Virus record (IMG/VR): IMGVR_UViG_3300025418_000839 | Coordinates: 1-64,000 of that record | Length of the DNA: 64,000 nt | Strand: one strand, 5' to 3' | DNA from: a virus | Taxonomy: Duplodnaviria > Caudoviricetes | In this document: in pieces, positions 9,180 through 28,896 of the stretch | How the letters are laid out: each line of letters begins with the position of its first letter | Numbering within the stretch: the first letter of the stretch is position 1 | Made by a program: the position numbers and the translations under genes | Notes under the pieces: generated by a model | What the model was told of the DNA's origin: nothing | Databases searched by the model: none | Seen by the model: only the letters and a program-made list of their open reading frames with translations

Positions 9180-9215
9180 AACGTAATCCTTTATGATATA
9201 GTATTATTTATCATA

Positions 9216-9239
9216 CTAAACCCGCCGAAGCGGGTTTAG
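9216..9239. terminator. Hairpin terminator downstream of the tmRNA
   Basis: CTAAACCCGC-CGAA-GCGGGTTTAG. Confidence 0.7.
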
Positions 9240-9484
9240 GTTATTTTCTGTTACGAGGTATAACTACCCTAGGCGCTGTTAGGCTGCCAATGCGAACTGT
9301 TCGTCGTTTGCGTTTACGTTATTTGCTTTTTACGTCTACTCCTGACGTGTTGCCTTTGTCGCTATCTCACCATGTCGAAACCAAATACGGGCCCACCGAA
9401 ATATACTACACAATACACTTCGGTGGACCCGCCGGGGGTCGAACCCGGGTCCACAATGCCTTTGCTAGAAAGGAATTACAACAA
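9240..9484 (-). ncRNA. ssrA: tmRNA, circularly permuted two-piece gene; tag peptide ANDEQFALAA (9279-9311)
   Basis: On the minus strand the T-arm CCGGG-TTCGACC-CCCGG and 3' acceptor strand CGGGTCC-A (ending 9424) precede the 5' acceptor strand GGGCCCG (9394-9388). They pair with G3:U70. The tag ORF is GCAAACGACGAACAGTTCGCATTGGCAGCCTAA. Outer ends are approximate. Confidence 0.92.
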
Positions 9485-9616
9485 TTACTTGACTGCTTCT
9501 GTGTGCTTGTGCTTCAAGCTCTTCTTTAGCAGTTTAAACCAAAATTTCTTAACTTTATCAAGGTTATGCTCGATTTCGGCCTTGTAAAGTTTACGAACTA
9601 ATTTTTCAACTTTCAT
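9485..9616 (-). CDS. 43-aa Lys-rich protein upstream of the tmRNA
   Basis: AAGGAGG SD; manual translation MKVEKLVRKLYKAEIEHNLDKVKKFWFKLLKKSLKHKHTEAVK. Confidence 0.6.
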   Translation of the reverse strand: MKVEKLVRKLYKAEIEHNLDKVKKFWFKLLKKSLKHKHTEAVK

Positions 9617-9647: not shown

Positions 9648-10451
9648 TTATTGAATTTGGTCAACGGTATTTGCGTGTTTTGGACGAGTAACAAACTTTT
9701 GTCGAACTGATTCAAATAATTCATATTCTTCTGGAGTGATAACCGCCGAATCAATTTCTTTGCGAACAGCCTGATGAAATTCAAATAGTTGCTGGATGTC
9801 TGCTTCGTACTTAAAGTATTTGGTAATGTGTTTAGTATCATAAGCATCCATAATTAAATGAAATCTATCTTCATTTGAATCATTGCGTATTTGATGCCAA
9901 TCATTGACCCATACCATATACGCATTTCCCGGTTCCATATATAGGTCGGTTCCGTGCATAATAAATTTGCACTTTTCGTTAGTTATCAAAGGTATATGAA
10001 GTCTGGCCATATATTCGTGATCGCCAGAGTCTTTGTGTACTAAACTCTTTGCGCCAGCTTTTAAACAGGTTACACGAGCACGTCTCGGTGTTAGGCCAAA
10101 TGCTTCTATTTGATCAATGACTTTTGCGAACTCGCCAACACAGGCCTGAGTTGGTTTATCATGTTCGGTACTCATAGCAATACCAAAAAACTTTAGTGTT
10201 TTATAGTTATTAGCGTTCTTAGGAAAAAATATTTCTAATTCTTTGCCTTCATCGTTTTGAAAATAATCCCAACCGTCACGCCAATCGCCAGTACGAGAAG
10301 TAACGGACCAACCACCAAAGCCATGGTATGCAGGTGTTTCGTATTCTTCGCCTTGAATAACCTGTTGTCCCAATGGAAATATATGTTCCTTAAGATCCTG
10401 TACTAACTTACTATGATCGAATGTGACCATATCTAATTTTTCATAAAACAT
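9648..10451 (-). CDS. Aspartyl/asparaginyl beta-hydroxylase-like Fe(II)/2OG oxygenase
   Basis: RARVTCLKAG, HKD, RLHIPLITN, WHQIRN and RFHLIMD. Confidence 0.8.
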   Translation of the reverse strand: MFYEKLDMVTFDHSKLVQDLKEHIFPLGQQVIQGEEYETPAYHGFGGWSVTSRTGDWRDGWDYFQNDEGKELEIFFPKNANNYKTLKFFGIAMSTEHDKPTQACVGEFAKVIDQIEAFGLTPRRARVTCLKAGAKSLVHKDSGDHEYMARLHIPLITNEKCKFIMHGTDLYMEPGNAYMVWVNDWHQIRNDSNEDRFHLIMDAYDTKHITKYFKYEADIQQLFEFHQAVRKEIDSAVITPEEYELFESVRQKFVTRPKHANTVDQIQ

Positions 10452-10983
10452 TTTGAATATCCTTGATCATTTCTTTTACTTCATCAAAACTGTATTTGTT
10501 AGTTGCCAATTGTAACACTTCTCGTACCGGTTTGTCAAAGTCATCGATTGACACTTCGTGTATTACCTTGTTGTCTATTAGATAAATGTCATACGGATCA
10601 GCATTAAATGTTCCCAACAGAGTCAACGATTCTTTAGAGTATATATGCCCTTCTCCGTGATCAGCATACTCAATCCCTCCAATACCCAAGTTGTTGGCAT
10701 ACATGTTGGTAGAATATCCGGCTGGTTGTACGTAGCAATTAAGTCCAGCAGTTTCTACTATGTCAGTGTGCGGCGGTATGTTATCATTTATAACTAATAA
10801 ACTAGAATAAAAATCACCGTGTACTTCCTTGGGTAATAAATTATACAATGTTTCCAATATTGTACTTGCTACATCATAGTATCTAATACCATAGAATTTG
10901 TCTGCTGGTCTGGTAGCAAACTCTATTTGCTTTTTTAAAACAGTTATAAGACCACTAGGTGCTTGACCAACGTACTTAAACAT
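10441..10983 (-). CDS. Putative Fe(II)/2OG-type (cupin/DSBH) oxygenase
   Basis: IPPHTD...YLIDNKVIHEV...R. Paralogous to 10976..11524. Confidence 0.55.
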   Translation of the reverse strand: MFKYVGQAPSGLITVLKKQIEFATRPADKFYGIRYYDVASTILETLYNLLPKEVHGDFYSSLLVINDNIPPHTDIVETAGLNCYVQPAGYSTNMYANNLGIGGIEYADHGEGHIYSKESLTLLGTFNADPYDIYLIDNKVIHEVSIDDFDKPVREVLQLATNKYSFDEVKEMIKDIQNVL

Positions 10984-11524
10984 CTAACAGTCCGTAATCA
11001 TTGAGCATAGCGTAAACTTCTGCATAGGTCATGTCAGTACTGAGATTAAGAACAAATCTAGGATTGTCTGCTGATAATTCATCTACACTATGTATTGCTG
11101 TGGTGTCTAGTAGGTAAACATCGCCTGGATGCGCTATAAACTGCTCTTCGAAGTTTAAGTTAGTTGGCTTCATACTACATGCACACTCGCCGGCAGTAAA
11201 CTTTTCAAAGTTACAACCGTTGCAGTCTTTGGCTAACTCTTTGTAGTCACCAGAATAAAATCTAGTAGTGGCGTTATTTTCTGAAAGATAAATGTTGATC
11301 TTACACTGGATGCCTTGGTCTCTGTGCGGCACAATGCGACCACGCATGGCCAAATGTGTTAGAAAGAATCTCTGCTGATACTCTGGCGGTATAATGATAC
11401 TGCTGTCGAGATCTACATATGAATAGGTGGATAAAGTACCGGCGCAGATATATTGAGTACCAAGTAGTTTAAAGTTTTCATATTTGGCAGGGTCAATTGA
11501 TTTTAAACGAGCATGGTACTTCAT
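10976..11524 (-). CDS. Putative Fe(II)/2OG-type oxygenase
   Basis: IVPHRD...YLLDTTAIHSV...R. Confidence 0.6.
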   Translation of the reverse strand: MKYHARLKSIDPAKYENFKLLGTQYICAGTLSTYSYVDLDSSIIIPPEYQQRFFLTHLAMRGRIVPHRDQGIQCKINIYLSENNATTRFYSGDYKELAKDCNGCNFEKFTAGECACSMKPTNLNFEEQFIAHPGDVYLLDTTAIHSVDELSADNPRFVLNLSTDMTYAEVYAMLNDYGLLDV

Positions 11525-12174
11525 AGTAATCCTTTAATTTTGAGCATAGAATCTACCCAACTTGTTATAACTAATTTATCAGTACTGTCGTCGGTTAGTT
11601 TGTAATTAAAATCAGTAGACAAACTAACACGTAGAGAATTGCTTTTATTTGCCTTAACTCCGTGTAATACATAGGATGGAAAGAAAATTAGGTCTCCAGA
11701 CACGGGCTGTATATGTTTAATTTGAGTCTTGTGTTCTCCCACTAACCCAGTATCTAAATAATAAAGTTCTCCGCCTTCTGCGGGAGTAGTTATATAGTAA
11801 GTAGAGGCTATAGTCGAATCTGGATGTCCGTGAAATTCGATAACTTCGTCAGGTTCTTTTATATTTGGCCAACTCGATAAGGGTGTGAATATGGCCGTAT
11901 GTGTGTCGGGTAGATAGTCGTTTACTGTAAAAGTTATTACATCTACCTTAGTATCTAGTAATTCTTTTAATCGTGGGCTGCTATCAGTATAATCTAATAG
12001 ACTACTACCAACATTTTTATCTATGCCCAGTTTAATGTTGCTGGCTATATTGTACAATTCTACCAACAACTCTTGATTAAAGTTATCGTTAAATTTGGTT
12101 TTGTAAGTCCAAACAGGACTTTCCCATAGTGTTTGTTTTACACTACTTTCGTATATGCCTTTTTCATACGACAT
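11521..12174 (-). CDS. Putative 2OG-Fe(II) oxygenase (TIGR02466-like)
   Basis: HGHP, GDLIFFPSYVLHGV and RVSLS. Confidence 0.8.
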   Translation of the reverse strand: MSYEKGIYESSVKQTLWESPVWTYKTKFNDNFNQELLVELYNIASNIKLGIDKNVGSSLLDYTDSSPRLKELLDTKVDVITFTVNDYLPDTHTAIFTPLSSWPNIKEPDEVIEFHGHPDSTIASTYYITTPAEGGELYYLDTGLVGEHKTQIKHIQPVSGDLIFFPSYVLHGVKANKSNSLRVSLSTDFNYKLTDDSTDKLVITSWVDSMLKIKGLL

Positions 12175-12177
12175 GAT

Positions 12178-12591
12178 TTAGTTGGTGGTTGGGATTATCC
12201 CGTTTTCTTGTTGAAATTTAATCAATGGTGCAAAGTCTAGACCTTGTTTTACAGCCAGGTCTTCTGGGAATGGGCGATTGTTTGCGGTCAACCACTCTTT
12301 GTATTCTGCTACGATCCAGCTAGGTGTATAGTCTATGCCCTCATGATGATCGGCTAAGGCTTCATAAAATTCATTACCGTAGCGTACAAAATTTGTAAAA
12401 GGTGCGCCCTTTAAAAAGAATAGTGTATCCAAAATTGGAGAATGATCAGTAATCATTTTAAAAAATTGATCTTTTTCTTCCGCTGATAGGTTATGTATGA
12501 TTCCGTTTACTTCTGTATCTAAAAAATATTTTATACAGTCGTTATATTGGTCTGGTGTTACTTCTTCAAAAATTTTATTCACGTTAGGCAT
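12178..12591 (-). CDS. Hypothetical protein in the rSAM/oxygenase operon
   Basis: Abuts its neighbours (0-3 nt gaps). No recognisable motif. Confidence 0.6.
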   Translation of the reverse strand: MPNVNKIFEEVTPDQYNDCIKYFLDTEVNGIIHNLSAEEKDQFFKMITDHSPILDTLFFLKGAPFTNFVRYGNEFYEALADHHEGIDYTPSWIVAEYKEWLTANNRPFPEDLAVKQGLDFAPLIKFQQENGIIPTTN

Positions 12592-13581
12592 TTATGCTTC
12601 CTTTAACAATTTTGATTTAACACGGCCGAATAAATTTTTAACATTGAGTATTGCCTTGCCAGTGTAGTAACTGAAATACAATAAAGATAAAATAGTCCAA
12701 GAAGTAAAGAAACCGTGTTTTCTATATTTGCGCGGCACTCTTGGAATACTACCAAAGAATTTACACAAAGGACGACCGATGGACATTAAGATACGACCAT
12801 AGTCGTTGTCTTTGTTTAGAGTACCCATAATATAGGCCATATGCTCTGACCATGGTTGGCCAACACGATATAGTATATCTGTGGCAAATTCTTTTTGTTT
12901 GAGCTTACGTTCTTCTTTGTCTAAAATCCAAGGCATAAAGTCTGGACCATGACCATCCATCCATTGAGTACAAATCTTAGCCCACTTGATGTAGCCACGA
13001 TAAATTGTTTTATCTTTTTTACGTAGAACTCGACCGTATGCTTGGTCTGCTGACCAAACTTCTTGGCTCATCATTCCCATGTCGTAGAATTTAGCACAAA
13101 CAATCTTAGAGCAGTTGCAAGCACAGTTACAGTTGTAGCTTACCAGGCCAGTATTGCAATTATAACTTACTGCACCACCGCAGTTACAATTATATGTACA
13201 GGCACAATTACAGTTGGACTGTAACCACGCTTGACCGTCGCAGTTAGCACAGTTTACATTAGTTGAACAGTTAGCACAGTTCGAACAATCACTAGGACCA
13301 GCAATAACACAATTAGTACACTGAATATTACCACAGTTACAGTTGTTGGTACAGTTGCCATTAGGGCCGCCCGATGGCGAACAGTTGCCGTTGTTACAGT
13401 TGCCTTGGTTGTTATTTTGAAAATAAGTTAAACCATAGAATCCCTGTAGGTGTGGGGTGCCGGGACGTTGCCCTGGCGTGATTAAATTGTTAAGAAAACT
13501 TAGACTAGCGGAATACCCGGGACGTCCAGTTTCTGAAAGAATTTGGCTAACTGATATAGGGCCGGATGATGGTAGTGTCAT
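12592..13581 (-). CDS. Asn/Cys-rich protein, candidate substrate of the rSAM/oxygenase cluster
   Basis: 23 Cys in residues 62-162, 18 of them as NC. The MTLPSSGPISVSQI start resembles phage virion/fibre proteins. C-terminal KIVC...ADxxYG...GYxxWA domain. Confidence 0.75.
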   Translation of the reverse strand: MTLPSSGPISVSQILSETGRPGYSASLSFLNNLITPGQRPGTPHLQGFYGLTYFQNNNQGNCNNGNCSPSGGPNGNCTNNCNCGNIQCTNCVIAGPSDCSNCANCSTNVNCANCDGQAWLQSNCNCACTYNCNCGGAVSYNCNTGLVSYNCNCACNCSKIVCAKFYDMGMMSQEVWSADQAYGRVLRKKDKTIYRGYIKWAKICTQWMDGHGPDFMPWILDKEERKLKQKEFATDILYRVGQPWSEHMAYIMGTLNKDNDYGRILMSIGRPLCKFFGSIPRVPRKYRKHGFFTSWTILSLLYFSYYTGKAILNVKNLFGRVKSKLLKEA

Positions 13582-14300
13582 AGTATAGTATTTATCTTGA
13601 TCAAATTAAGAAACTCTAGTATTTTTATATAGCACCATCCTAGGTCAATTTCAAACCAACGTTTAGCAAAATTTGCACAGGCCGGAAACTCGTGATGATT
13701 ATTGTGCAGTTCTTCACCACAGCCTAGTAGTCCCAAAGGTAAAACATTTGTACTGGTATCGGGCCTATCATAGTTCCTGTAACCAATTTTGTGCCCAAAT
13801 CCAGTGATAGTGGCATTTACAAACAGACTCACGGAAAACATGTGCACCAGCCAGGCCACAATACCTAGCCAGCCAAATAAACCAATGTTTATTGTTAGTA
13901 GTATTAACAGGCCTAATTTTGTATGGCAGTAGACATTCTTTTCTAACCAATTCTCTTTAAAATCACGACTGAAGTGTGCGGTTTCCCAATCGGTATTCCA
14001 ATATTGGTATTCTCTAAAAAAGTTAGGTATTAAACAATGTCCAGTGACCCGCCAAAAACCAGATAATAACGGACTATGCGGATCACCGTGTACATCGGTA
14101 AACATATGATGTATTCGATGTTGGGCAATAAATGGCTTGGGATAGATTCCCTCGGTTATCCAGAACAAAAAACGGAATACATGCTCGACTATAGGATACT
14201 TGATTGTATACTGCCGATGTATCAAGTATCTATGCAGATATATCGATGTTAATACTATACCAAGATGTGCTGTACATATAGTATATACAACAACGTCCAT
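13578..14300 (-). CDS. Membrane fatty-acid desaturase (delta-9 type)
   Basis: His boxes HRYLIH, HRIHH and GEELHNNHH, plus hydrophobic segments. Confidence 0.9.
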   Translation of the reverse strand: MDVVVYTICTAHLGIVLTSIYLHRYLIHRQYTIKYPIVEHVFRFLFWITEGIYPKPFIAQHRIHHMFTDVHGDPHSPLLSGFWRVTGHCLIPNFFREYQYWNTDWETAHFSRDFKENWLEKNVYCHTKLGLLILLTINIGLFGWLGIVAWLVHMFSVSLFVNATITGFGHKIGYRNYDRPDTSTNVLPLGLLGCGEELHNNHHEFPACANFAKRWFEIDLGWCYIKILEFLNLIKINTIL

Positions 14301-15748
14301 TATGCGCTTTCTACGCGGCTTTTCCCATAAACTTCAACATCATCGATGGTACCAATTTTTTCTGCTACCACTTTAATAGGAATAATCTTCTTAACGGCCT
14401 TTTCCTTGTGTTCGTAGATAGTGCCAAAAATATCCTGGCGTTCTAATGGTAGTGCATCATTTTTAATCAGTGTAGGAATATAACCCGTTATTTTTTCTAT
14501 AGCTAGGGCAAAAAGAGCCACATTGTCTGAATAAGCATTGGCACAAGATATTTCCCAAAACTTATTGTCTAAGAACATACAAGCACCCTTACAGACATGC
14601 AACACTGGGCAACTGGGGCATTCTGCACGATTTGACCAATGTGTTGAAGTTTTGATTGCTACATTATCATAGTCATCTAATGTACCGCCTAGGTGACTTT
14701 CACCGTTTTTGCTGGTTTCTACTGCTGAGACGTTTTGACAGGTTATCACATTGCCACGCAGGTCCACAGCGATTGCACGTTGATCATCCATGCCACATTT
14801 TTGTCCTAGGGTATCTGCTTCTTGGTGTGTTAGTACACTTTTAATAAATCCGTCAATCTTACCTAATTGTCCGGTAAATCCAATACGACCTTGGGTTGAA
14901 AAAATATCCGCAAATGCAGTACGTCTAAAATCAAAATGTTCTTCTAGGGTTTGTAGACTGTTGCTCATACCCTCTTCGTCATAAGCATCAACAATAGAAC
15001 CTTCACCTAACTGTATGTCGGGATTTCCTGTTAGTTCTACAAACCAATCATAAATTGCCTTACGGCTTTTATTTTTAGCATGCAACATGGGGTTGAAACT
15101 GATGCCTTTTTTCAATCGACTCATCATGCGATAAAAACCTAATAGTCTTTTCTTTTGGTCTGGATCATCAAACGGATCTGGTCCGCGAACTGACTGCCCA
15201 GGACCGTCATGTGAGATACTAACTGAAAAATTTAGTGCCATTAACCAATCAATCATTTCGTCGGTTAGAATACTACCGTTGGTAATAACAGAAAATAATG
15301 GTTTACGTTTCCAGTCTTTAAATCTTTCTAATAGTGCTTCAGCTAGGGGTTTGAAAGTTTTCCAATAGACAAATGGCTCACCTCCCCAAAACTCTACCTT
15401 AAGTCCATCTTCTTCACTGAACTCTAATACATCCAATTTGGCAAGAAAAGCATCAATATCTTTCTTACTAGTTTCTGGAGCACGCTCTACAAATTTTTGT
15501 GAACAGTAATCACAGGTGTAGTTACAACTCAGTCCAAGTTGAATTTTTAATAGTTGAATGCCGCGGGATTTTTTAAGAGGACGGTCGCGGTCGAAAGGTA
15601 TATAAGGTTCTAGTCCCTCTATCTTGTATGAACCCTTTGGATATTCGTACAAGTTACCTTGTTCGTCTTTGAGTGTATTGGCTTGATTGTCGTAATAAAA
15701 AATACGTTTATCGTCGGTGCTGCGTTCAGCATGAATTTCAAATAGCAT
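14300..15748 (-). CDS. Radical SAM enzyme with SPASM domain (anSME/peptide-maturase type)
   Basis: CNYTCDYC, FWGGEP, ITNG and SISHDG. SPASM cysteines KCG...ITC...CPSCPVLHVCKGAC...SC. Confidence 0.9.
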   Translation of the reverse strand: MLFEIHAERSTDDKRIFYYDNQANTLKDEQGNLYEYPKGSYKIEGLEPYIPFDRDRPLKKSRGIQLLKIQLGLSCNYTCDYCSQKFVERAPETSKKDIDAFLAKLDVLEFSEEDGLKVEFWGGEPFVYWKTFKPLAEALLERFKDWKRKPLFSVITNGSILTDEMIDWLMALNFSVSISHDGPGQSVRGPDPFDDPDQKKRLLGFYRMMSRLKKGISFNPMLHAKNKSRKAIYDWFVELTGNPDIQLGEGSIVDAYDEEGMSNSLQTLEEHFDFRRTAFADIFSTQGRIGFTGQLGKIDGFIKSVLTHQEADTLGQKCGMDDQRAIAVDLRGNVITCQNVSAVETSKNGESHLGGTLDDYDNVAIKTSTHWSNRAECPSCPVLHVCKGACMFLDNKFWEISCANAYSDNVALFALAIEKITGYIPTLIKNDALPLERQDIFGTIYEHKEKAVKKIIPIKVVAEKIGTIDDVEVYGKSRVESA

Positions 15749-15768: not shown

Positions 15769-15855
15769 TTATTGATCAGTATCAAGCCAATCTTTGACTG
15801 TGATTATTGCATAGATCAAAAGTGCAGAAAAGATTATAAAGGCTAGATATGTCAT
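15769..15855 (-). CDS. Possible 28-aa membrane peptide
   Basis: Manual translation MTYLAFIIFSALLIYAIITVKDWLDTDQ, between TAAATA and the rSAM gene. No clear SD. Confidence 0.3.
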   Translation of the reverse strand: MTYLAFIIFSALLIYAIITVKDWLDTDQ

Positions 15856-15861
15856 AACAAT

Positions 15862-15902
15862 ATTTATTAATAAGTGCTAACCAGTAACACTTATTAATAA
15901 AT
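15862..15902. repeat. Perfect 15-bp inverted repeat overlapping a TAAATA promoter
   Basis: ATTTATTAATAAGTG-N11-CACTTATTAATAAAT. Confidence 0.8.
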
Positions 15903-18888: not shown

Positions 18889-20333
18889 CTGGCGCTCGCT
18901 ACAAAACGCAGGTCTCTACTGATAGAGCCTAGTTCCCGTTTCATCTTAGGACCAGCCCGTTTTACCGTGGCACGATCCACATGTGTATCGGGTTCGTCTT
19001 CGGGATCAGCTGATACATTTACTGGTTCATCGGTACGTGTATCAAAGCCGTGTATGTTTATCTCTTTACCGTAGCGACGTTGTAATTCTTGCCACACACG
19101 ATAGCCACCTTCGCTTTGTTTGTAGTCGCTTACCAGTGTTAAGCCGCGATTTAAAATCAAAAAAGCGTACAGGTCTGCGGCTCGGTAACGATTCTTAGGT
19201 CCGGAATAAACACCGTGTATGACAAAGCTGTCACGGTTTGTAGAGTAAGGACGGCCTGTAGTGCCAAGTTGGCAACGACGTGTTTCGGTATCAAAAACAT
19301 AGTAAGTAACGGTACCGTGGCTGGTCCATGACCATAGTTGAAAACCATCGCCCATTTCTGCTACTAGATCGCCAAGGTAGTCCGACTCTTCGCCTCGCGG
19401 TATAGGCCGACCTTCGTTGGGCATGACATCCAGGTGTTCACGTTTGCGTTTAACAATGGTAGGAACTTTGGTTATTTCCATGATACCTGTGCTACGGCGT
19501 AAGCGTAGATCAAAGTCTCGATCACTTTCGTACTTCTGGATATACTGTTCATAATAACGACGTGCTTGCTCAGGCGTATCAGCTTCAAAGCGATCCACTA
19601 TCTGGTTACTACCAGCAGGGCGATCAGCATGGTAAATTTCATAGCCTCGGTTGAGACGATCACGCACACGAGCCATGTGATCCATGCGACGACTAACGTG
19701 TTGATCAGCACGGTCAAGATAACTGCGTCTTAATTCGTCGCTGATTTCATCAACTCGATCTTCCCATACTTGTTTTTGTCCACGATTCTTTTGCCAAAAA
19801 TACTGACCAGCCGGAGTTTGTTCTGAGCTACGACGGATTTGATAACCCAACTCTTTGGCCCAGTCATACATGACGGCCGCAATGCCCTGGCCGCGAACAT
19901 CGGGGTTGACTGATGTATCAAAACTTTCAATATTTTGGCCTGTGCGATCAAAGTGTGCGGCAGCTATTTCTTTGCCACCACGATCATAAGCATATATGCT
20001 GATGCCTTTGTCATCTGATCGGGCTTCTAAATCTAACCCACCTCTGTGTGCTCGAACACTTTGGATTGTTTCGTATATGTCATCATACAAATCACCATCA
20101 AACTCATCGTCACTGATCACATACTCTTGACCTGCGCGATTTTTGAGTTGGACATAATCATAATCCACCTGTTGAATAGTCCAGCCCAACGCGGCCAATT
20201 CTTGGGCATACTCCGCTTGTTTGTCGCCACCATTCCACCATAGGTTGGCCAACCGATGCAGATGTGGAGGAACCGCGTCTCCGTCGGAGTCGTCTCTAGG
20301 ATTTGCGGTAGGAGCAAATTCTAAGAATCTCAT
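18885..20333 (-). CDS. Multi-module protein with a GNAT acetyltransferase domain (probable internal head protein)
   Basis: VNPDVRGQGIAAVMYD acetyl-CoA motif and QTPAGQYFW. A second GNAT-like module has SDYKQSEGGYRVW. The MRFLEF start is coupled to the upstream stop. Confidence 0.65.
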   Translation of the reverse strand: MRFLEFAPTANPRDDSDGDAVPPHLHRLANLWWNGGDKQAEYAQELAALGWTIQQVDYDYVQLKNRAGQEYVISDDEFDGDLYDDIYETIQSVRAHRGGLDLEARSDDKGISIYAYDRGGKEIAAAHFDRTGQNIESFDTSVNPDVRGQGIAAVMYDWAKELGYQIRRSSEQTPAGQYFWQKNRGQKQVWEDRVDEISDELRRSYLDRADQHVSRRMDHMARVRDRLNRGYEIYHADRPAGSNQIVDRFEADTPEQARRYYEQYIQKYESDRDFDLRLRRSTGIMEITKVPTIVKRKREHLDVMPNEGRPIPRGEESDYLGDLVAEMGDGFQLWSWTSHGTVTYYVFDTETRRCQLGTTGRPYSTNRDSFVIHGVYSGPKNRYRAADLYAFLILNRGLTLVSDYKQSEGGYRVWQELQRRYGKEINIHGFDTRTDEPVNVSADPEDEPDTHVDRATVKRAGPKMKRELGSISRDLRFVASAR

Positions 20334-23317
20334 TATGTACTCATCAGTGGACGGCAACTGAACGCACTAGGATCCTCTGCACCAATATCGCGTACATAGC
20401 GTTGTGCGGTCGCCCACGCACTAGTCTGATCGTGATCAGCAAAGGTATGGATAACATGCCCCGAATCACGTTCATATACTTGCCACATAGGAACACCATT
20501 TGGTGCTGTGGCCTGAACAGGATCGCCTGAACGGTATTGTACAAATGCGTCATCGCGACCAGTTAGATCATTAACGTATTGTTTAGCAACAGTAGCAATA
20601 TTTTGTATCTGTGCTGTGTGTCCTGGCATGGTTGGCAAGAACCCATAGATTCTATTGTCACTGCCGCCGCGTACTTCATAGTAGTCTCCGGTAGCAGGAC
20701 GTTGTGTTATAAATCCTTGGGGTGGTTGATTGACCACTGGATTGTGTTCTTGACGATCACGATAGCGTTGTTCACTATCAGCTGTAGGTACAGTACGCAT
20801 ACGAACGCTGTCATCTGGGTGACCGTATCTGCGTACAAGATCTCTACGCACCTCTTCAGCTTGACTGCGTGATGCATTATCTACAGTATCAATTACTGCA
20901 CCAGTTTCGGCACGATAAAATTCCCACTTATGTGGCTCATCCATTATATCCGTGTCTTTGGGTTCAGACTTTGCTCTAACTTCTAAATCGTCGGCGTTTT
21001 CAAAGTCGTGTAATTTAGCAACGTGTTTTAATAGTTCCTGTGCTCGAGTTTTGTCAACTTTAAGGATATTATCAATTACGCGACCAGTTGGAACATAAAC
21101 GACATCCCAGTCTTGTTTTTGTTTATCTGGATCCAAAGGAATTTCTTTGATAGCAAGACGACCTTGTGGTAATTTTTGCTCACGTTCAAACTTACGCATG
21201 GCTTGAACTAAGTTACTCTTACGACCTTCTTGTTCGTAGTGTACTTCACCGGTCTTAGTGTCGTATACCCGCCAGTTTTTAATCTCTTCTTCTGGAGCCG
21301 CTTTAATATTTTTAGCAAGTCGCTCGCGTTTACTCAATGGCTTTTCTGGTTCTTCAGGATCAGCCGGACGTAGATTAAATGCAATGCCTTGGTCAGTCAC
21401 ATACTTGTCGTATACTGCATCAGCGGCTTCGCCTTTGGTTGCATAGCCATGTAGTATTTCTAAAGTTTCGCCGGTATCATTGTTGTATACTTCCCAATCA
21501 CCAGTGGTACTCTTCATTGGTAATACTCGATATTCCTTTTGGAAACCTTCCATACTGCCGCCGGGACTCAGTTTCTTTTTAGCACGTTCCCATACTTCAG
21601 ATTTTGTATAACCGTGATAGTCCTGTCCGATAATATACTTGCCATTGGCATCGTACACTTTCCAGTCGCCCTTGGGCTCCGATTCCAACTGCTTCTCCGC
21701 CCAGGCCTTTTTAAGATCTGTACTTGAAATTTCACCTGTAGCAAAGCGACTAAACAAATCGATTGCAGGATCACCTTCTGGTGGGCTAATGAGCTTGTAT
21801 AACTTCTTGTAGTATTCGTTACGTTCGGCTGCTGGGTTAGCTGCCACAGTCATTGCTTTAGCATAACGCAGGAGTGTGTTCTTTAATTTGTCAATGTCTT
21901 CAAAGTAATTTGAGCCACCAGCTGAGCGGAACTCAATATATTTGGCACCTTTTTCTTTAGCTGGATTAGTTGAGTCTACTCCACCTTTAGGATTGATACT
22001 AGTATATTTGCCAAAGCCATGATTATTAATCTCAAGTGCTTTTTGTGCTAGTTCTAACAAGTTACTACGCATTAGTGTAAGCGCACCGCCGACAGCATCT
22101 GGATTACCTTTGACTCTACCACGAATCTTTTTCATTGCGGCTTCGCAGAAGTGATTACCAGCACGACCAAACTCTTGTAGCACATGCTCATCACCCAAGA
22201 ACAAGGCTAGTTTCACATAGTCAACATCACCGCCACGGTGTGGCAAGCTAACACCCATATGGAAACCGGTTGAACTGTTACTGTAAGCACCATTCTCTTC
22301 AGCCCACTCAAAGAAGTCTTCCATCATGCTCAAACAAGTTTCTAATGGCATCGGAGGACTAACAATCTCCATGGCCATGTTGTCTTCGTCATCTGAGTCA
22401 AGACTTGAGTCAGGTTCAAAAATCCAAGTTTTGTCGTCACGAGTGGCTGAATGGTAACCGCCCGATACTTTGGTCTTAACACCCAAACGTTCGTGTAGAT
22501 CGTCGGCGAGACGTTCAGCTTCATCTTCATTCCAACCGCCGCCACTGCTAGAGCCAGTATAGGTCATAACTGGCCAACTTAAATCAAATTCGTTAGCTAC
22601 ATCACTCATCCAACGTAGACCTACCTCATCAAAGAAACCACTATCATCATCTACATAAAAACTGTCACGGAAATCATCTAGAGCTGAATCGTAGTAGCTG
22701 TCCTGTTTGTTAATACTGGTTTCAACGTCTTCTTCAAGAATTTCTTCTGCGTCACTAACTGCATCAATATAAATTTGGTAGTCGGGGTTTTTTTCAATAT
22801 AGGCTTCTTGTTCTTTAGAGCTGGTAAATTTAGGTGCTGCTTCACCCACAGCCTGAATGCGATCGGCCACTTCATCAGTGAGATCCATACCATCAACAAG
22901 TACAGCATGTACACGTTCATCCATTGGACGTTCATCTAACCATACTTTGCGTATCAAATCTTCCTGTTCATCACGGAAGGCTTCCCACATCTGTTCATCT
23001 TGCCACTCGTAATATTTTTCATCTAAAGATTCACGCAGTCGATCTGCTTGACGTGGAGTTAATCCCCAACCATACTCATCGTTTTCAAAGAATTCTATAA
23101 CTTGATCAAGTGTACGGCAACGTTCATCCGCATCGTAGTCGGGTTCTGGATCTTCGTCATATTCGGGTTCACCGCCTAGGCCTGTAAATACTAGTTCAGC
23201 TTCAAAGCCAGCCATGATGCCTTCAGCTTCCGGGCTCTTAGCAAATTGATTTAGACTCTTAGGATTCATTCTAAGTTCGTCTAATTGTTCCTCGGACAGT
23301 AAGTGTTTATATCGCAT
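20333..23317 (-). CDS. Putative amidoligase (COOH-NH2 ligase family) with C-terminal tandem repeats
   Basis: GFEAEL, DSSL, EIVSP, STGFHMGVS, KYTSIN and IEFRS motifs, followed by about 7 W-x-V-Y-x-x-x-TG repeats. Confidence 0.8.
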   Translation of the reverse strand: MRYKHLLSEEQLDELRMNPKSLNQFAKSPEAEGIMAGFEAELVFTGLGGEPEYDEDPEPDYDADERCRTLDQVIEFFENDEYGWGLTPRQADRLRESLDEKYYEWQDEQMWEAFRDEQEDLIRKVWLDERPMDERVHAVLVDGMDLTDEVADRIQAVGEAAPKFTSSKEQEAYIEKNPDYQIYIDAVSDAEEILEEDVETSINKQDSYYDSALDDFRDSFYVDDDSGFFDEVGLRWMSDVANEFDLSWPVMTYTGSSSGGGWNEDEAERLADDLHERLGVKTKVSGGYHSATRDDKTWIFEPDSSLDSDDEDNMAMEIVSPPMPLETCLSMMEDFFEWAEENGAYSNSSTGFHMGVSLPHRGGDVDYVKLALFLGDEHVLQEFGRAGNHFCEAAMKKIRGRVKGNPDAVGGALTLMRSNLLELAQKALEINNHGFGKYTSINPKGGVDSTNPAKEKGAKYIEFRSAGGSNYFEDIDKLKNTLLRYAKAMTVAANPAAERNEYYKKLYKLISPPEGDPAIDLFSRFATGEISSTDLKKAWAEKQLESEPKGDWKVYDANGKYIIGQDYHGYTKSEVWERAKKKLSPGGSMEGFQKEYRVLPMKSTTGDWEVYNNDTGETLEILHGYATKGEAADAVYDKYVTDQGIAFNLRPADPEEPEKPLSKRERLAKNIKAAPEEEIKNWRVYDTKTGEVHYEQEGRKSNLVQAMRKFEREQKLPQGRLAIKEIPLDPDKQKQDWDVVYVPTGRVIDNILKVDKTRAQELLKHVAKLHDFENADDLEVRAKSEPKDTDIMDEPHKWEFYRAETGAVIDTVDNASRSQAEEVRRDLVRRYGHPDDSVRMRTVPTADSEQRYRDRQEHNPVVNQPPQGFITQRPATGDYYEVRGGSDNRIYGFLPTMPGHTAQIQNIATVAKQYVNDLTGRDDAFVQYRSGDPVQATAPNGVPMWQVYERDSGHVIHTFADHDQTSAWATAQRYVRDIGAEDPSAFSCRPLMST

Positions 23318-25702: not shown

Positions 25703-25957
25703 TTACGATTTTGCCGGAATCAGTAACCAGCCTTGTCCGGAATGAGTGTGGTACCAAGAATAAAATGGTGCAGGTATAGTTAAGATGCCATCTTGAGCAA
25801 GATAGTGATATTTTGGTAATATTTCGTAGCCGTTGATGGTTACTGTTTGGTTGACGTCTAAGACAATAGTATCATATAAATTATAGAGTGTTTCTACACC
25901 ATTTACTGATACTGCTAATTGTGCCTTAGTAGCCAGCAGATCTGAGAAGTTCTTCAT
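25703..25957 (-). CDS. Hypothetical protein
   Basis: Overlaps the 3' end of the rSAM gene. FYSWYHTHSGQGWLL. Confidence 0.55.
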   Translation of the reverse strand: MKNFSDLLATKAQLAVSVNGVETLYNLYDTIVLDVNQTVTINGYEILPKYHYLAQDGILTIPAPFYSWYHTHSGQGWLLIPAKS

Positions 25958-27200
25958 ATTCGGGCAAGTACCTTAGTATACTGTTATTCCTACTGGATTC
26001 TAACAATTTGATATAGTTAACCAAATCAGGTAATCGTTCCGATTCATCTGGTTGATTTTGTAAGTAATCTACGTAACTGCGAGCATCTTGTATAATTTGT
26101 TGTTGAGCAAATGCAGGGTGTCTGGTGTTTATGATCTGTTCTGTTGGTGTATGTTCATATCTATTAATCCAATCAGATAATCTAGCAATCACTTGAGATC
26201 TGACTGACATGGGCAACACGCTGGGTCGCATGAACGCAGGATCGTTTAAGAAATTACAACTTTCAACTGATATATTTCGTTGATAAGCATACTCATAAAC
26301 TGTGGCAAGGTGCCACATGGTAAAGATAGTGGGCGTTGTTCTTAATTGTACTAACCAATTGGAATTTTTAGCAACGTCTAACCACTGTTCCATAATCTCC
26401 AGAGTTTGATCAATGTTGCTACCATACCTAACATAGTCATTTAGGGGATGAATGCATTCAACACTTAACCCAAGATTTACCTGTTCAAACTGTGTGAGTA
26501 AGTCAACTACCGTTTGATCCCATACTGTGAGATTGGTTGTAAATCCCACAGTAATTTTTTTATGTAGATTTTCTTCTACCAAAGTTTCTAGTATGCGTTT
26601 AAATGCTGGAGTAATTAGTGTTTCACCGCCAATGAAATGCAAGTACTTAGTGGTCTTACTTTCTCTTAGAGAATCTAAAAAGAAATTAAATTTTATAGGA
26701 TTCTCGCACCAACTGGCCTGTGGCACTTCATTAATTATTCCTATGCGTTTAAATTCGTTGGCAAGTCTACTGCTACTGTTAGGTTCACAAAAAATACAAG
26801 CACTATTACAAAAATTACCTAGATCAATTTGCCAGTCTTGTGGAGTTAGTGTAGTTTCTGTTTTTTTAAATTCTTCTAGCCAAGGACTACTTAACATGGT
26901 ATTTGTAAAGTCATCTAAACGAATTCCTGTTTTAAGTAGTTGCCGTTGTCGTCCACTTACCTTGCCACGTGCTTCCATTTGATGACATTCTCTGCAAGTG
27001 TCCAATAATTCACCATTGAGTAAACTTTGTCGTATGGATGACATACCCTGCTGAAAAAAGTGTAGTGGTGTTTGCTCCTGTATATCGGGCAAGTTATTCC
27101 GGTCTTGCTTTGTGGCCCAACGACAATATTCGTAATGCCCAGAGTTATTGATCCGCATATGGAACCAAGGACTCGAACAAAATCGATCTTTAAATGTCAT
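25926..27200 (-). CDS. Radical SAM protein with N-terminal twitch-like domain
   Basis: FCSSPW...YCR...[22 protein letters not shown] and LSVE. Confidence 0.85.
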
Positions 27201-27787
27201 CGTTTGGTAATGATCTCATCAATGAGTCCATAGGCCAATGCTTCTTCAGCACTCATAAAGAAATCACGTTCCATGTCTGCCTCAAACTCGTCGTAGGTTT
27301 TGCCTGCAGAGTTGTGTTTGACGTAAATCTCTGTTAGGTAGCGTTTCATCTTCAAGATTTCTTGCGCTTGAATTTGAATGTCTGTAGCTTGTCCACGTGC
27401 TCCGCCCGATGGTTGATGAATCATATGACGTGCATGCGGTAACATTAGTCGCTTGCCTGCAGCTCCAGCTGTGCTAAGAAGACTTCCCATAGAGCAGGCC
27501 TGACCCATAACAATGGTACTAACATCGGGTTTGATAAACTGCATTGTATCGTAGATAGCCATGCCCGCTGTAACTGAACCGCCGGGACTATTAATGTAGA
27601 ATAGTATGTCTGCATCAGGATTTTCGCTTTCTAAGAATAATAACTGTGCTACCAACAAACTGGCAGAGTGTTCATTGACATCGGTATCTAACATGACAAT
27701 ACGGTCCTTGAGTAGTCGACTGTAAATGTCATAAGCACGTTCGCCATTGGCTGTTTTTTCTAATACTGTTGGTACAAAGTTTGGCAT
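27197..27787 (-). CDS. clpP: ATP-dependent Clp protease proteolytic subunit
   Basis: [32 protein letters not shown] and MERDFFMSA. Confidence 0.95.
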
Positions 27788-28896
27788 TTTTCACCTAATA
27801 GTTGATATAATTCTGTAAATGTTTTGGCAAAGTTTTGTGATCTTTGCTTGTCTAATATTGTAACATATTTTATTGTAGTGTCAAGTAAGTGACTGTCATC
27901 TCTTGCCCACATGGCCTGTACAATAGGTTCCAATTGTTTGTGTGTTTCAAATTTTTGTTCAATTGCCTTTTTAGTATCGGTTGGTAAAACTGTAATATTG
28001 TAGTAATCGGGGCGACTTACTAGACCCATATATGGTTCTGGTAAATTATTTTTGGCGCACCAATCTAAAAACTCGGGTAAGTAATAAACAGTGAACACGC
28101 TAACGCTATGACTAATACTTAATTGTATATTTGTGTTTTTTTCACGTAACTCTAAATACTTTTTAGTATTCATCAATACTGTCGACCATTCTGCTGGCCA
28201 ACGATTATATTCAAACTGTTCTCCAAAACCGTCCAAACTAAGTTGTATATCAATCTTTTTAAACTTCTCCCATGTACTTAAGATTGTGCTGCTGGGAAAT
28301 TTAGTACCATTTGTTATATAGTGTAAGCTGATATTTTCAGGGAAATAATTTGACAATTCCGTTAAGAATTTACTATGAAGTTCTTGATCGGCGTAGAATG
28401 GTTCGCCACCAGGAAACTCTACATGTTTGATTGTTTTTATTCTGTCAACCAGATCTTTTAAAAATTTAGGGTCTTGATAAAATTTACTGTGCTGATTAAT
28501 CACAATGTCGGGAAAATGATGTTTAAGTTTACGTTCTTCAACTGCCCAGCGACTACTTGAATAGCTATTACAAATTCTACAGGCAAGATTACAAGTGTTA
28601 CCAAAAGGTATACTTAATACCTTAATACCATCAAAATTTGGTATTTGATCTTCAAAAGTGTATTTGTTGTCTAGAGTGCGTTTACTAGGTAGACCAGCAT
28701 CTTCGTCGCGCCAGCACCTAATGCACCCAGCAGGTTTCTTGCCGGCTTTAAATTCGGCTTTTAGCTCAGCCAACTCTGTACTATTTTCGTAATCATGTAG
28801 ATTAGTAGCAATACTAGTTGAGTATTTACAACAGGGTTTAAATTCACCCTGGGGGCTAATATCCAATCCTACCCAAGGATGGTAACACATTTTCAT
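27760..28896 (-). CDS. Radical SAM protein with N-terminal twitch-like domain
   Basis: CYHPW...PCC...[23 protein letters not shown] and LSLDG. Confidence 0.85.

Follow-up and report, generated by a model that had tools for sequence, protein, structure and literature searches.

What does a radical S-adenosylmethionine (radical SAM) enzyme act on in a tailed phage, and to what end? The locus discussed here raises this question. It lies at positions 9648-15748 of a 64,000-nucleotide (nt) stretch of DNA, hereafter the window, which is positions 1 to 64,000 of IMG/VR record IMGVR_UViG_3300025418_000839 (Duplodnaviria; Caudoviricetes). Eight genes run together on the minus strand, among them a gene for a radical SAM enzyme with a SPASM domain and one for a protein rich in Asn and Cys. 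Genomic neighbourhoods tie this enzyme family to a ladder of alternating Asn and Cys residues, (Asn-Cys)n, which in relatives lies at the ends of tail-fibre proteins. We consider it probable that the eight genes form a cassette, expressed late, for maturing a fibre-tip protein of the phage, in which the radical SAM enzyme modifies the ladder, most likely by thioether bridging. Two of the genes are central to this proposal:

14300-15748, minus strand: radical SAM/SPASM enzyme of 482 amino acids (aa), the proposed maturase (Pfam and NCBIfam matches; phrog_1802 at 3.1e-63)
12592-13581, minus strand: Asn/Cys-rich protein of fibre-tip type, 329 aa (family alignment A1; AlphaFold2 (AF2) model)

The 329-aa protein consists of a conserved N-terminal unit (residues 1-55), an NC-rich body (residues ~56-160) that ends SYNCNCACNC, and a helical module that finishes in a C-terminal hydrophobic helix (residues ~160-329). 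Its Cys content is 7.6%. Shadow frames aside, it is the only open reading frame (ORF) with a C-x-C-x-C ladder in the window, and likewise in the 128.9-kb record from which the window comes. No Pfam, NCBIfam or PHROG family matched it. AF2, run on alignment A1, gave a predicted local distance difference test score (pLDDT) of ~30 in the NC body; residues 160-329 were modelled at a pLDDT above 90. The same alignment separates three forms of the family: (i) the ladder is followed by a C-terminal module of ~170 residues (40 loci, including the window), (ii) it is followed by Peptidase_S74 or (iii) it stands at the end of the protein. A consensus drawn from 90 distinct ladders reads [Y/T]-N-C-N-C-[N/A]-C-[N/D/A]-C; the number of x-C units is 3-9, and in 49 of the ladders the protein ends with them to within four residues. 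The x positions hold N, followed in frequency by A and D and then by Q and V; since a ladder needed two or more NC units to enter the set, the Asn counts of the first two positions are partly circular. What these alignments show to be conserved is a unit of the N-terminal 55 residues and the NC-rich body; the part after the ladder is interchangeable.

How regularly do enzyme and ladder occur together? A scan of viral contigs with the radical SAM protein yielded 72 loci, at 66 of which a same-strand ladder is encoded no more than 6 kb away. At the other six, only 29-3612 nt of sequence precede the radical SAM gene on its upstream side. In the 45 closest loci (64-77% identity in the radical SAM enzyme), a homologue of the 329-aa protein lies directly beside the radical SAM gene. 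BLAST detected no such homologue in the 27 distant loci (42-50%); there, a regular-expression scan found a same-strand ORF, 1-5 kb upstream, that ends NCNCNC.... In Achromobacter phage JWF and Ralstonia phage RSP15, the radical SAM gene is two or three genes downstream of the ladder fibre gene. We also analyzed the reverse direction, by searching the viral collection for DNA encoding NCNCNCNC. This search returned 80 loci, of which 51 have the pattern in frame in an ORF, and at 45 of those 51 it falls within 20 residues of the ORF end. A radical SAM relative is present at 34 of these 45 loci versus none of the 29 off-frame control loci. Of the 11 loci with a C-terminal NCNCNCNC and no radical SAM relative, nine have less than 2.5 kb of downstream sequence.

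Bacterial genomes gave a similar picture. A scan with the single protein found no relatives in them, and a radical SAM profile made from alignment A6 found 206. Most belong to freshwater Burkholderiales (Limnohabitans and Polynucleobacter, for example), and Burkholderia paludis MSh1 is also among the carriers. Among the best 80 of the 206 loci, 61 have an upstream ladder on the same strand, and 15 of the 19 without one have at most 2042 nt of upstream sequence. The pairing holds from 77% down to ~26% radical SAM identity, and across unrelated fibre bodies. These data show that the radical SAM family and the (Asn-Cys)n ladder are in an obligate genomic partnership, which we regard as well established. 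An earlier note on this DNA, made from its letters only, had staked its reading on homologues of the enzyme co-occurring with Cys-rich ORFs, and they do so in both directions.

The proteins that carry the ladder are fibres in many of these loci. They include collagen-like fibres (Pfam Collagen, tail-fibre PHROGs), fibres of the JWF gp028 type, and tandem-triplet proteins of 86-119 aa with fibre-type N-termini. The JWF gp028 fibre protein itself reads ...NCNCDCNCNCSC and then passes immediately into a Hint domain. RSP15 gp048, a side tail fibre, ends ...NCQCGN, and the fibre protein of locus L129 has at its end both a ladder and an inner CGNIQCTNC motif. In two relatives of form (ii), L021 and L037, Peptidase_S74 (PF13884) starts right after the ladder (32 and 29 bits; cut-off 22); these proteins also match, over residues 5-224, the C-termini of many tail-fibre and baseplate PHROG families. 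Because the part after the ladder is interchangeable, and in two cases is a self-cleaving domain, we take the ladder to be the C-terminal tip of the mature protein. That it usually ends tail-fibre proteins, or precedes S74 or Hint, argues for a fibre tip as the substrate rather than a free peptide.

The earlier note had left the choice between a virion appendage and a released peptide, and this fibre context elsewhere favours the appendage. Could the product nonetheless be a released or membrane-inserted peptide, resembling the peptides that are made on ribosomes and modified after translation (RiPPs) and made during infection (for instance a bacteriocin, or a factor for lysis or for superinfection exclusion), and not a part of the virion? 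The 329-aa protein is small, has a hydrophobic helix at its end and is encoded in an operon of its own; in the window, its gene is not flanked by any tail-fibre gene of the neighbour families, and the curated families nearest to the radical SAM enzyme are RiPP maturases. Yet the ladder (in L129 together with CGNIQCTNC) ends bona fide fibre proteins, variants of the 329-aa family itself carry the S74 chaperone and match tail-fibre C-termini, and no signal peptide is visible at the N-terminus of the 329-aa translation. PqqD-like RiPP recognition elements (RREs) are winged helices with three strands and three helices. The earlier note had looked to ORF 12178-12591, adjoining the 329-aa gene, for an RRE or PqqD fold, and none was found: the AF2 model of its 137-aa product is all-helical and has no fold match. 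We therefore judge a released or membrane-inserted product very unlikely, and we continue with the virion fibre tip as the preferred substrate.

The enzyme gene is complete and has its iron-sulfur motifs. Its product passes the cut-offs of both PF04055 Radical_SAM (34.6 bits, cut-off 29.5) and the SPASM model TIGR04085 (32.2 bits, cut-off 27). All ten of its cysteines are accounted for by the CX3CX2C triad and seven SPASM cysteines. Those of the triad (C75, C79 and C82) are kept in 87 of 88 distinct homologues, and those of the SPASM region (C318, C337, C377, C380, C386, C390 and C402) in 87-88 of the 88. The seven-Cys motif is predicted to provide sites for two auxiliary 4Fe-4S clusters.

Which reaction might this enzyme catalyze? 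Its top curated match is the PapB family, NF047865 (80.2 bits, 1.6e-22, residues 66-392), well short of the cut-off of 340. Among solved chains, the closest by sequence is 8vpo (E 1.5e-12), followed by CteB (5wgg; 2.2e-9). PapB/PapA (freyrasin) and CteB/CteA (six cysteines in forty-five residues, SCIFF) are ranthipeptide systems, and their substrates resemble the ladder in having several Cys and repeated motifs. Unlike them, the phage substrate is a fibre-type protein, and the region ahead of the radical SAM core is only ~65 residues long. The second curated match, QhpD (TIGR03906; 69.6 bits, 2.1e-19), also fails its cut-off (453), and only the radical SAM core, residues 64-184, is aligned. 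Both of these nearest curated families form thioethers. In the Qhp system (QhpD/QhpC, with QhpG and QhpE) of quinohemoprotein amine dehydrogenase, a radical SAM-SPASM enzyme makes several Cys-to-Asp/Glu thioethers in a small Cys-rich protein of a larger assembly (PMC13692751), and a separate oxygenase then acts on the crosslinked protein (PMC7876137). The phage cassette likewise has oxygenases besides its SPASM enzyme, but they are of the 2-oxoglutarate (2OG)/cupin and di-iron kinds, whereas that of Qhp is a flavoprotein; and where Qhp yields an enzyme subunit, the phage product would belong to the virion. CrpC of Methanococcus voltae is a SPASM radical SAM enzyme that forms ranthionine crosslinks in a large Cys-rich protein, CrpA, encoded next to it (Dieter et al. 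2026, PMC13692751), and that paper describes both QhpD and CrpC as installing thioethers in proteins. It located the acceptor residues in CrpA by desulfurization combined with deuterium labelling, and mentions 'catalytic proximity residues' that are said to tell sactisynthases from ranthisynthases. CrpC/CrpA resembles the present case in that a SPASM gene lies beside a Cys-rich ORF, and it was found by the same gene-pair logic. It differs in being archaeal and cellular, phages go unmentioned in the text of the paper, and the CrpC-type model TIGR04463 gave only 44 bits (1.2e-11) for the phage enzyme, versus a cut-off of 525.

The composition of the ladder points to a further analogue. NxxcB, which acts on the streptococcal RaS-RiPP NxxcA, links Cys to the beta-carbon of an Asn three residues upstream, and tolerates Ala, Gln or Asp there (PMC9389541). 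The NCNC ladder reads as a run of overlapping NxxC units, and the residues at its x positions (N, A, D, Q, V) fit this acceptor tolerance, a correspondence that is suggestive only. No NxxcB model was among the best 25 of 50 NCBIfam matches of the phage enzyme. The two systems also differ in their substrates: NxxcA is a short, quorum-regulated peptide, whereas in the phage case 3-9 x-C units follow one another at the terminus of a protein or fibre, in a system that is phage-encoded and linked to tail fibres. By analogy, the phage system would work like QhpD/QhpC, CrpC/CrpA and NxxcB/NxxcA, but it fails every curated family score.

Plain metal binding offers another account of the ladder. Runs of C-x-C are typical metal ligands, which counts for a ladder that binds metal, whether in the manner of a metallothionein or as a Cys counterpart to the His-x-His iron sites in T4 fibre tips. 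The radical SAM enzyme would then perform some other reaction (conversion of Cys to formylglycine, carbon-carbon coupling or epimerization) or help to load the metal. Consistent with this, the JWF homologue of the enzyme is annotated as an anaerobic sulfatase-maturating enzyme, and the sulfatase-maturase model TIGR03942 matches the window enzyme at 1e-12. The score of that match is 47.8 bits versus a cut-off of 349, however, and C/S-x-P-x-R, the substrate motif of sulfatase maturases, was not seen in the translation of the 329-aa protein. A dedicated enzyme in nearly every locus would be superfluous for simple metal binding, and the x-position residues match the acceptor tolerance of an Asn-Cys thioether synthase. 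Two further points count for it: the closest solved chain, 8vpo, is cited in a paper on cyclopropyl synthases, not thioether formers, and the CrpA authors consider metal binding for their modified Cys-rich protein (PMC13692751). On this evidence, we regard the metal-binding account as improbable.

Thioether bridging of the fibre tip, the preferred reading, could proceed as follows. The 329-aa protein would be the stand-alone equivalent of the (Asn-Cys)n-laddered tip that ends many tail-fibre proteins, and the radical SAM/SPASM enzyme would be its dedicated modifier. The enzyme would abstract hydrogen from Asn, Asp or Ala residues of the ladder, and the alternating Cys would then close thioethers, giving either overlapping small rings or links between the chains of the fibre trimer. 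The ladder would thereby become a covalently stapled knot, within or between chains. The helical, membrane-anchored C-terminal module would be removed or left behind; relatives carry the self-cleaving S74 or Hint, or nothing, in its place. In this lineage, further oxidative tailoring of the same protein might come from the oxygenases of 2OG type, from the Asp/Asn-hydroxylase-like enzyme and, where present, from the desaturase.

What is the helical module? It is encoded at 12592-13104 (minus strand), begins ...SKI(I/V)C.KL... and ends in the hydrophobic helix. A profile search with it matched 1543 representative clusters at E <=0.001, and 685 at <=1e-10. Among the matches listed, module-bearing proteins range from 110 to 1859 aa, and in all 23 proteins examined the module is at the C-terminal end. 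In one of them (P0025), a Hint domain immediately precedes it. In a library of viral models, it appears again as the C-terminal part of further phage proteins, including a DUF4815 protein. No Pfam family matched the module, its profile had no matches among PDB sequences, and Foldseek against the PDB gave no row with E <=0.001; in the structure Atlas, it met unnamed viral clusters only. The NEL domains of SlrP and SspH1 were considered as its fold and set aside, since the VIA-align Z scores of 6.4 and 5.9 over ~105 residues are below a meaningful level for helical models. The nearest parallel is positional: Peptidase_S74, the intramolecular chaperone of fibres and spikes, starts right after the ladder in relatives, where the window has the module. 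This suggests that the module is a removable C-terminal assembly aid. Unlike S74, it is all-helical with a terminal hydrophobic helix, and it has no Pfam or significant solved-fold match.

The remaining six genes of the cassette are as follows:

13578-14300, minus strand: short membrane di-iron desaturase/hydroxylase, 240 aa (FA_desaturase PF00487, 39.3 bits, cut-off 29.7)
12178-12591, minus strand: helical protein, 137 aa (AF2 pLDDT 86, helices only)
11521-12174, minus strand: 2OG-Fe(II) oxygenase, 217 aa, TIGR02466-like (PF13759 2OG-FeII_Oxy_5, 58.4 bits, cut-off 27)
10976-11524, minus strand: HxD...H...R oxygenase paralogue 1, 182 aa, with a Cys-containing insertion (alignment A5)
10441-10983, minus strand: HxD...H...R oxygenase paralogue 2, 180 aa (alignment A5)
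9648-10451, minus strand: Asp/Asn beta-hydroxylase-like cupin oxygenase, 267 aa (PF05118 Asp_Arg_Hydrox, 45.9 bits, which passes the cut-off of 22.6)

In the ORF list with translations, the eight minus-strand ORFs form one run from 15748 to 9648, with overlaps of 1, 4, 4, 8 and 11 nt, one gap of 0 nt and one of 3 nt. The eight coupled genes described in the earlier note are thus borne out by the coordinates, and the identities it gave them (a radical SAM-SPASM enzyme, a desaturase, an Asn/Cys-rich protein, one unknown, oxygenases and an Asp/Asn-hydroxylase-like enzyme) were upheld by Pfam and NCBIfam matches and by the alignments. For the desaturase, the DesA-family model NF049918 gave 231 bits (cut-off 400), aligned over profile positions 9-241 of 385; the His boxes HRYLIH, HRIHH and HNNHH can be read in the translation. 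The PF13759 oxygenase scored 54.6 bits on TIGR02466, just under the cut-off of 62.5, and a phmmer search of the PDB returned two uncharacterized proteins at E 0.01 or worse. In the 180/182-aa oxygenases, H67, D69, H145 and R156 (HxD...H...R) are invariant across 29 aligned sequences. This family had no Pfam or PHROG match, and its profile met only cupin rows in the PDB (E >0.1). The 182-aa paralogue has, at residues ~96-118, a four-Cys insertion, CxxC...CxC, that is missing from the other paralogue lineage and is also found in L005, L007, L008 and L022. It may be a small metal site.

For the hydroxylase-like protein, phmmer found nothing in the PDB, and homology to RSP15 gp046 was rejected, as BLASTP gave no similarity (best E 1.2). 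The 137-aa protein matched no family; Foldseek gave E >1 and no PDB row at E <=0.001, the best VIA Z was 2.7, and the Atlas offered only unnamed viral clusters with scores <0.8. A relation of its family to SynMITS9220M01 gene 029 was tried and dropped (hhalign probability 0.2%). A predicted complex of the C-terminal module with the 137-aa protein scored 0.00, which speaks neither for nor against binding.

To count the accessories, we clustered same-strand neighbours at 109 loci, comprising 50 of group A (40 of form (i) and 10 of forms (ii) and (iii)) and 59 distant loci of group B. The most widespread accessory is the PF13759 oxygenase, present at 35 group-A and 19 group-B loci. Among the 40 form-(i) loci, 35 carry the 137-aa protein, 33 the 180/182-aa oxygenase family, 30 the hydroxylase-like enzyme and 16 the desaturase. 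The hydroxylase-like enzyme is found in all 30 form-(i) loci with at least 4.1 kb downstream of the radical SAM gene. The desaturase is optional in form-(i) cassettes. It always lies within the cassette, sometimes duplicated, and occupies two alternative positions: in the window it separates the radical SAM gene from the ladder gene, and in L005 and L007 it has the oxygenase genes on one side and the hydroxylase gene on the other. The accessories are outside the universal pairing, and the 137-aa, 180/182-aa and hydroxylase-like families are found only with the form-(i) helical module.

A different family, which we call cluster 2 (~270 aa; L144:2592-3398; L001:6314-7129, which is RSP15 gp047), lies between bare-end ladder fibres and the radical SAM gene. 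It is present in 44 of the 59 distant loci and in four of the five close form-(iii) loci. It had no Pfam, PHROG or PDB-sequence match (profile versus PDB, 0), and kinship with the C-terminal module was rejected (hhalign probability 0.4%). Cluster 2 may be a partner that acts in trans, in place of the C-terminal domains carried in cis.

Do the accessories act on the same protein? An alternative is that two unrelated units are co-transcribed here, one being the radical SAM enzyme with the ladder and the other (desaturase, hydroxylase-like protein and 2OG oxygenases) a set of auxiliary metabolic genes for host lipids or small molecules. The oxygenases, the 137-aa protein and the desaturase occur at none of the 10 group-A loci with S74 or a bare end, and all accessories but the PF13759 oxygenase (19 of 59) are missing from the 59 distant loci. 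The desaturase scores 231 bits on a lipid-desaturase model, that of DesA, and is present in fewer than half of the form-(i) loci. PF05118 includes hydroxylases of lipid A and of ornithine lipids, which also counts for two units; the hydroxylase-like protein of the window, however, has no visible hydrophobic anchor and no NCBIfam lipid-hydroxylase match. The form-(i) loci come from related phages, so that synteny may have been inherited rather than selected. Yet the accessory genes are interleaved with the radical SAM and ladder genes, and cassette gene order is reshuffled among relatives while the gene set stays together. This argues for one function, without proving it. The PF13759 oxygenase, moreover, accompanies the pairing in distant loci too. 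Taken together, we think two unrelated units somewhat unlikely; for the oxygenases themselves, the same protein and something else, such as lipids, are comparably likely targets.

The absences just described, and the lipid hydroxylases within PF05118, also weigh against a single maturation pathway, as the accessories could be lineage baggage or act on something else. Several other points weigh in the same direction. The radical SAM enzyme falls outside every curated radical SAM family, scoring far below all of their cut-offs, and the tie between 8vpo and a cyclopropyl-synthase paper means that homology does not fix the reaction. Cys-to-Asn/Asp thioether crosslinking is the most likely reaction as suggested by distant homology and substrate composition. 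As for the pairing, two viral loci have a C-terminal ladder and ample flank but no radical SAM relative, and four bacterial loci have at least 7.8 kb of upstream sequence but no ladder. Many of the 45 closest loci come from phages related to one another and do not count as independent; it is on the distant loci, viral and prophage, that the argument rests. It is the relatives of the 329-aa protein that suggest it to be part of the virion, and tblastn against the window with eight families of neighbours at other loci, among them tail-fibre-like, DUF4815-like and cluster 2 families, gave no match. Finally, 22 of the 23 module-bearing proteins examined have no NC ladder, and Gly- or Pro-rich linkers precede the module instead. 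The module is therefore not specific to the radical SAM/ladder system; it is a generic, unnamed C-terminal module of phage fibre-like proteins.

Is such a system known? Searches of the full-text literature, with subscription journals and supplements out of reach, turned up no account of a radical SAM enzyme at work on the fibres of a phage. A RiPP-like radical SAM maturation applied to a virion fibre protein would thus have a setting, the ends of phage fibres, that is absent from the papers found. From the window come the fullest accessory set, the observation that its members go with the helical C-terminal module and not with the ladder itself, and the size of the module family, a large and nameless one of 1543 representative clusters. 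More broadly, fibre-tip stapling may be a trait of many tailed phages and of many prophages, chiefly in freshwater Burkholderiales, with a radical SAM/SPASM enzyme turning an (Asn-Cys)n ladder into a thioether knot; the lineage of the window would have a separate tip protein, held at the membrane and, ahead of its incorporation into the virion, oxidized by as many as five oxygenases. We put this forward tentatively, as a picture whose chances we place slightly short of even. So far, the known substrates of SPASM thioether chemistry are small antimicrobial peptides and two proteins of cells, QhpC and CrpA. If the picture is correct, the virion would carry a post-translational modification found in no paper, RiPP-type chemistry would become part of phage host recognition, and there would be a new layer in how phages build and stabilize their host-recognition parts. 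It would also account for a puzzle, the NCNC tail conserved across hundreds of fibre genes, and would amount to a naturally modular protein-stapling system that consists of a short tag and one enzyme.

Two features lie upstream of the cassette:

15861-15867, minus strand: ATAAATA motif, candidate late-type promoter element (read in the sequence)
15769-15855, minus strand: hydrophobic mini-ORF of 28 codons, ...IITVKDWLDTDQ, between the ATAAATA motif and the radical SAM gene (frame-0 translation)

The TAAATA core (15861-15866, minus strand) is 113 nt upstream of the radical SAM ATG, and a hairpin that closes the upstream gene precedes the motif. ATAAATA occurs 16 times on the minus strand of the window versus four times on the plus strand, and TAAATA lies 27-45 nt upstream of the radical SAM gene in nine of the 50 group-A relatives examined. 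It is plausible, judging from these positions, that the motif serves as the promoter of the cassette. Small ORFs ending ...KDW..., which resemble the 28-codon mini-ORF, also precede the radical SAM gene in L007 and L019.

The 6.2-kb cassette region had no megablast match in the phage collection. CheckV estimated a completeness of 35% for the 128.9-kb source record, whose first 64 kb make up the window, and a very large phage is therefore probable. The cassette is followed, immediately downstream, by a full-length transfer-messenger RNA (tmRNA) gene (9214-9531, minus strand; Rfam beta_tmRNA RF01850, 186.9 bits, gathering score 84), with the tag peptide ANDEQFALAA according to ARAGORN. The beta_tmRNA, together with the many radical SAM relatives in Burkholderiales prophages, points to a betaproteobacterial host.

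Elsewhere in the window, at 25926-28896 on the minus strand, two more radical SAM genes flank a Clp protease gene:

25926-27200, minus strand: radical SAM gene (40.5 bits), whose product also weakly matches phrog_1802, the PHROG of the cassette enzyme
27197-27787, minus strand: Clp protease gene (272 bits)
27760-28896, minus strand: radical SAM gene (29.3 bits, just below the cut-off of 29.5)

The C-x-C-x-C ladder scan of the window found no Cys-rich ORF near this pair. Upstream of the cassette, at 20333-23317 (minus strand), is the gene for a 994-aa protein with a weak match to Amidoligase_2 (28.6 bits, cut-off 22).

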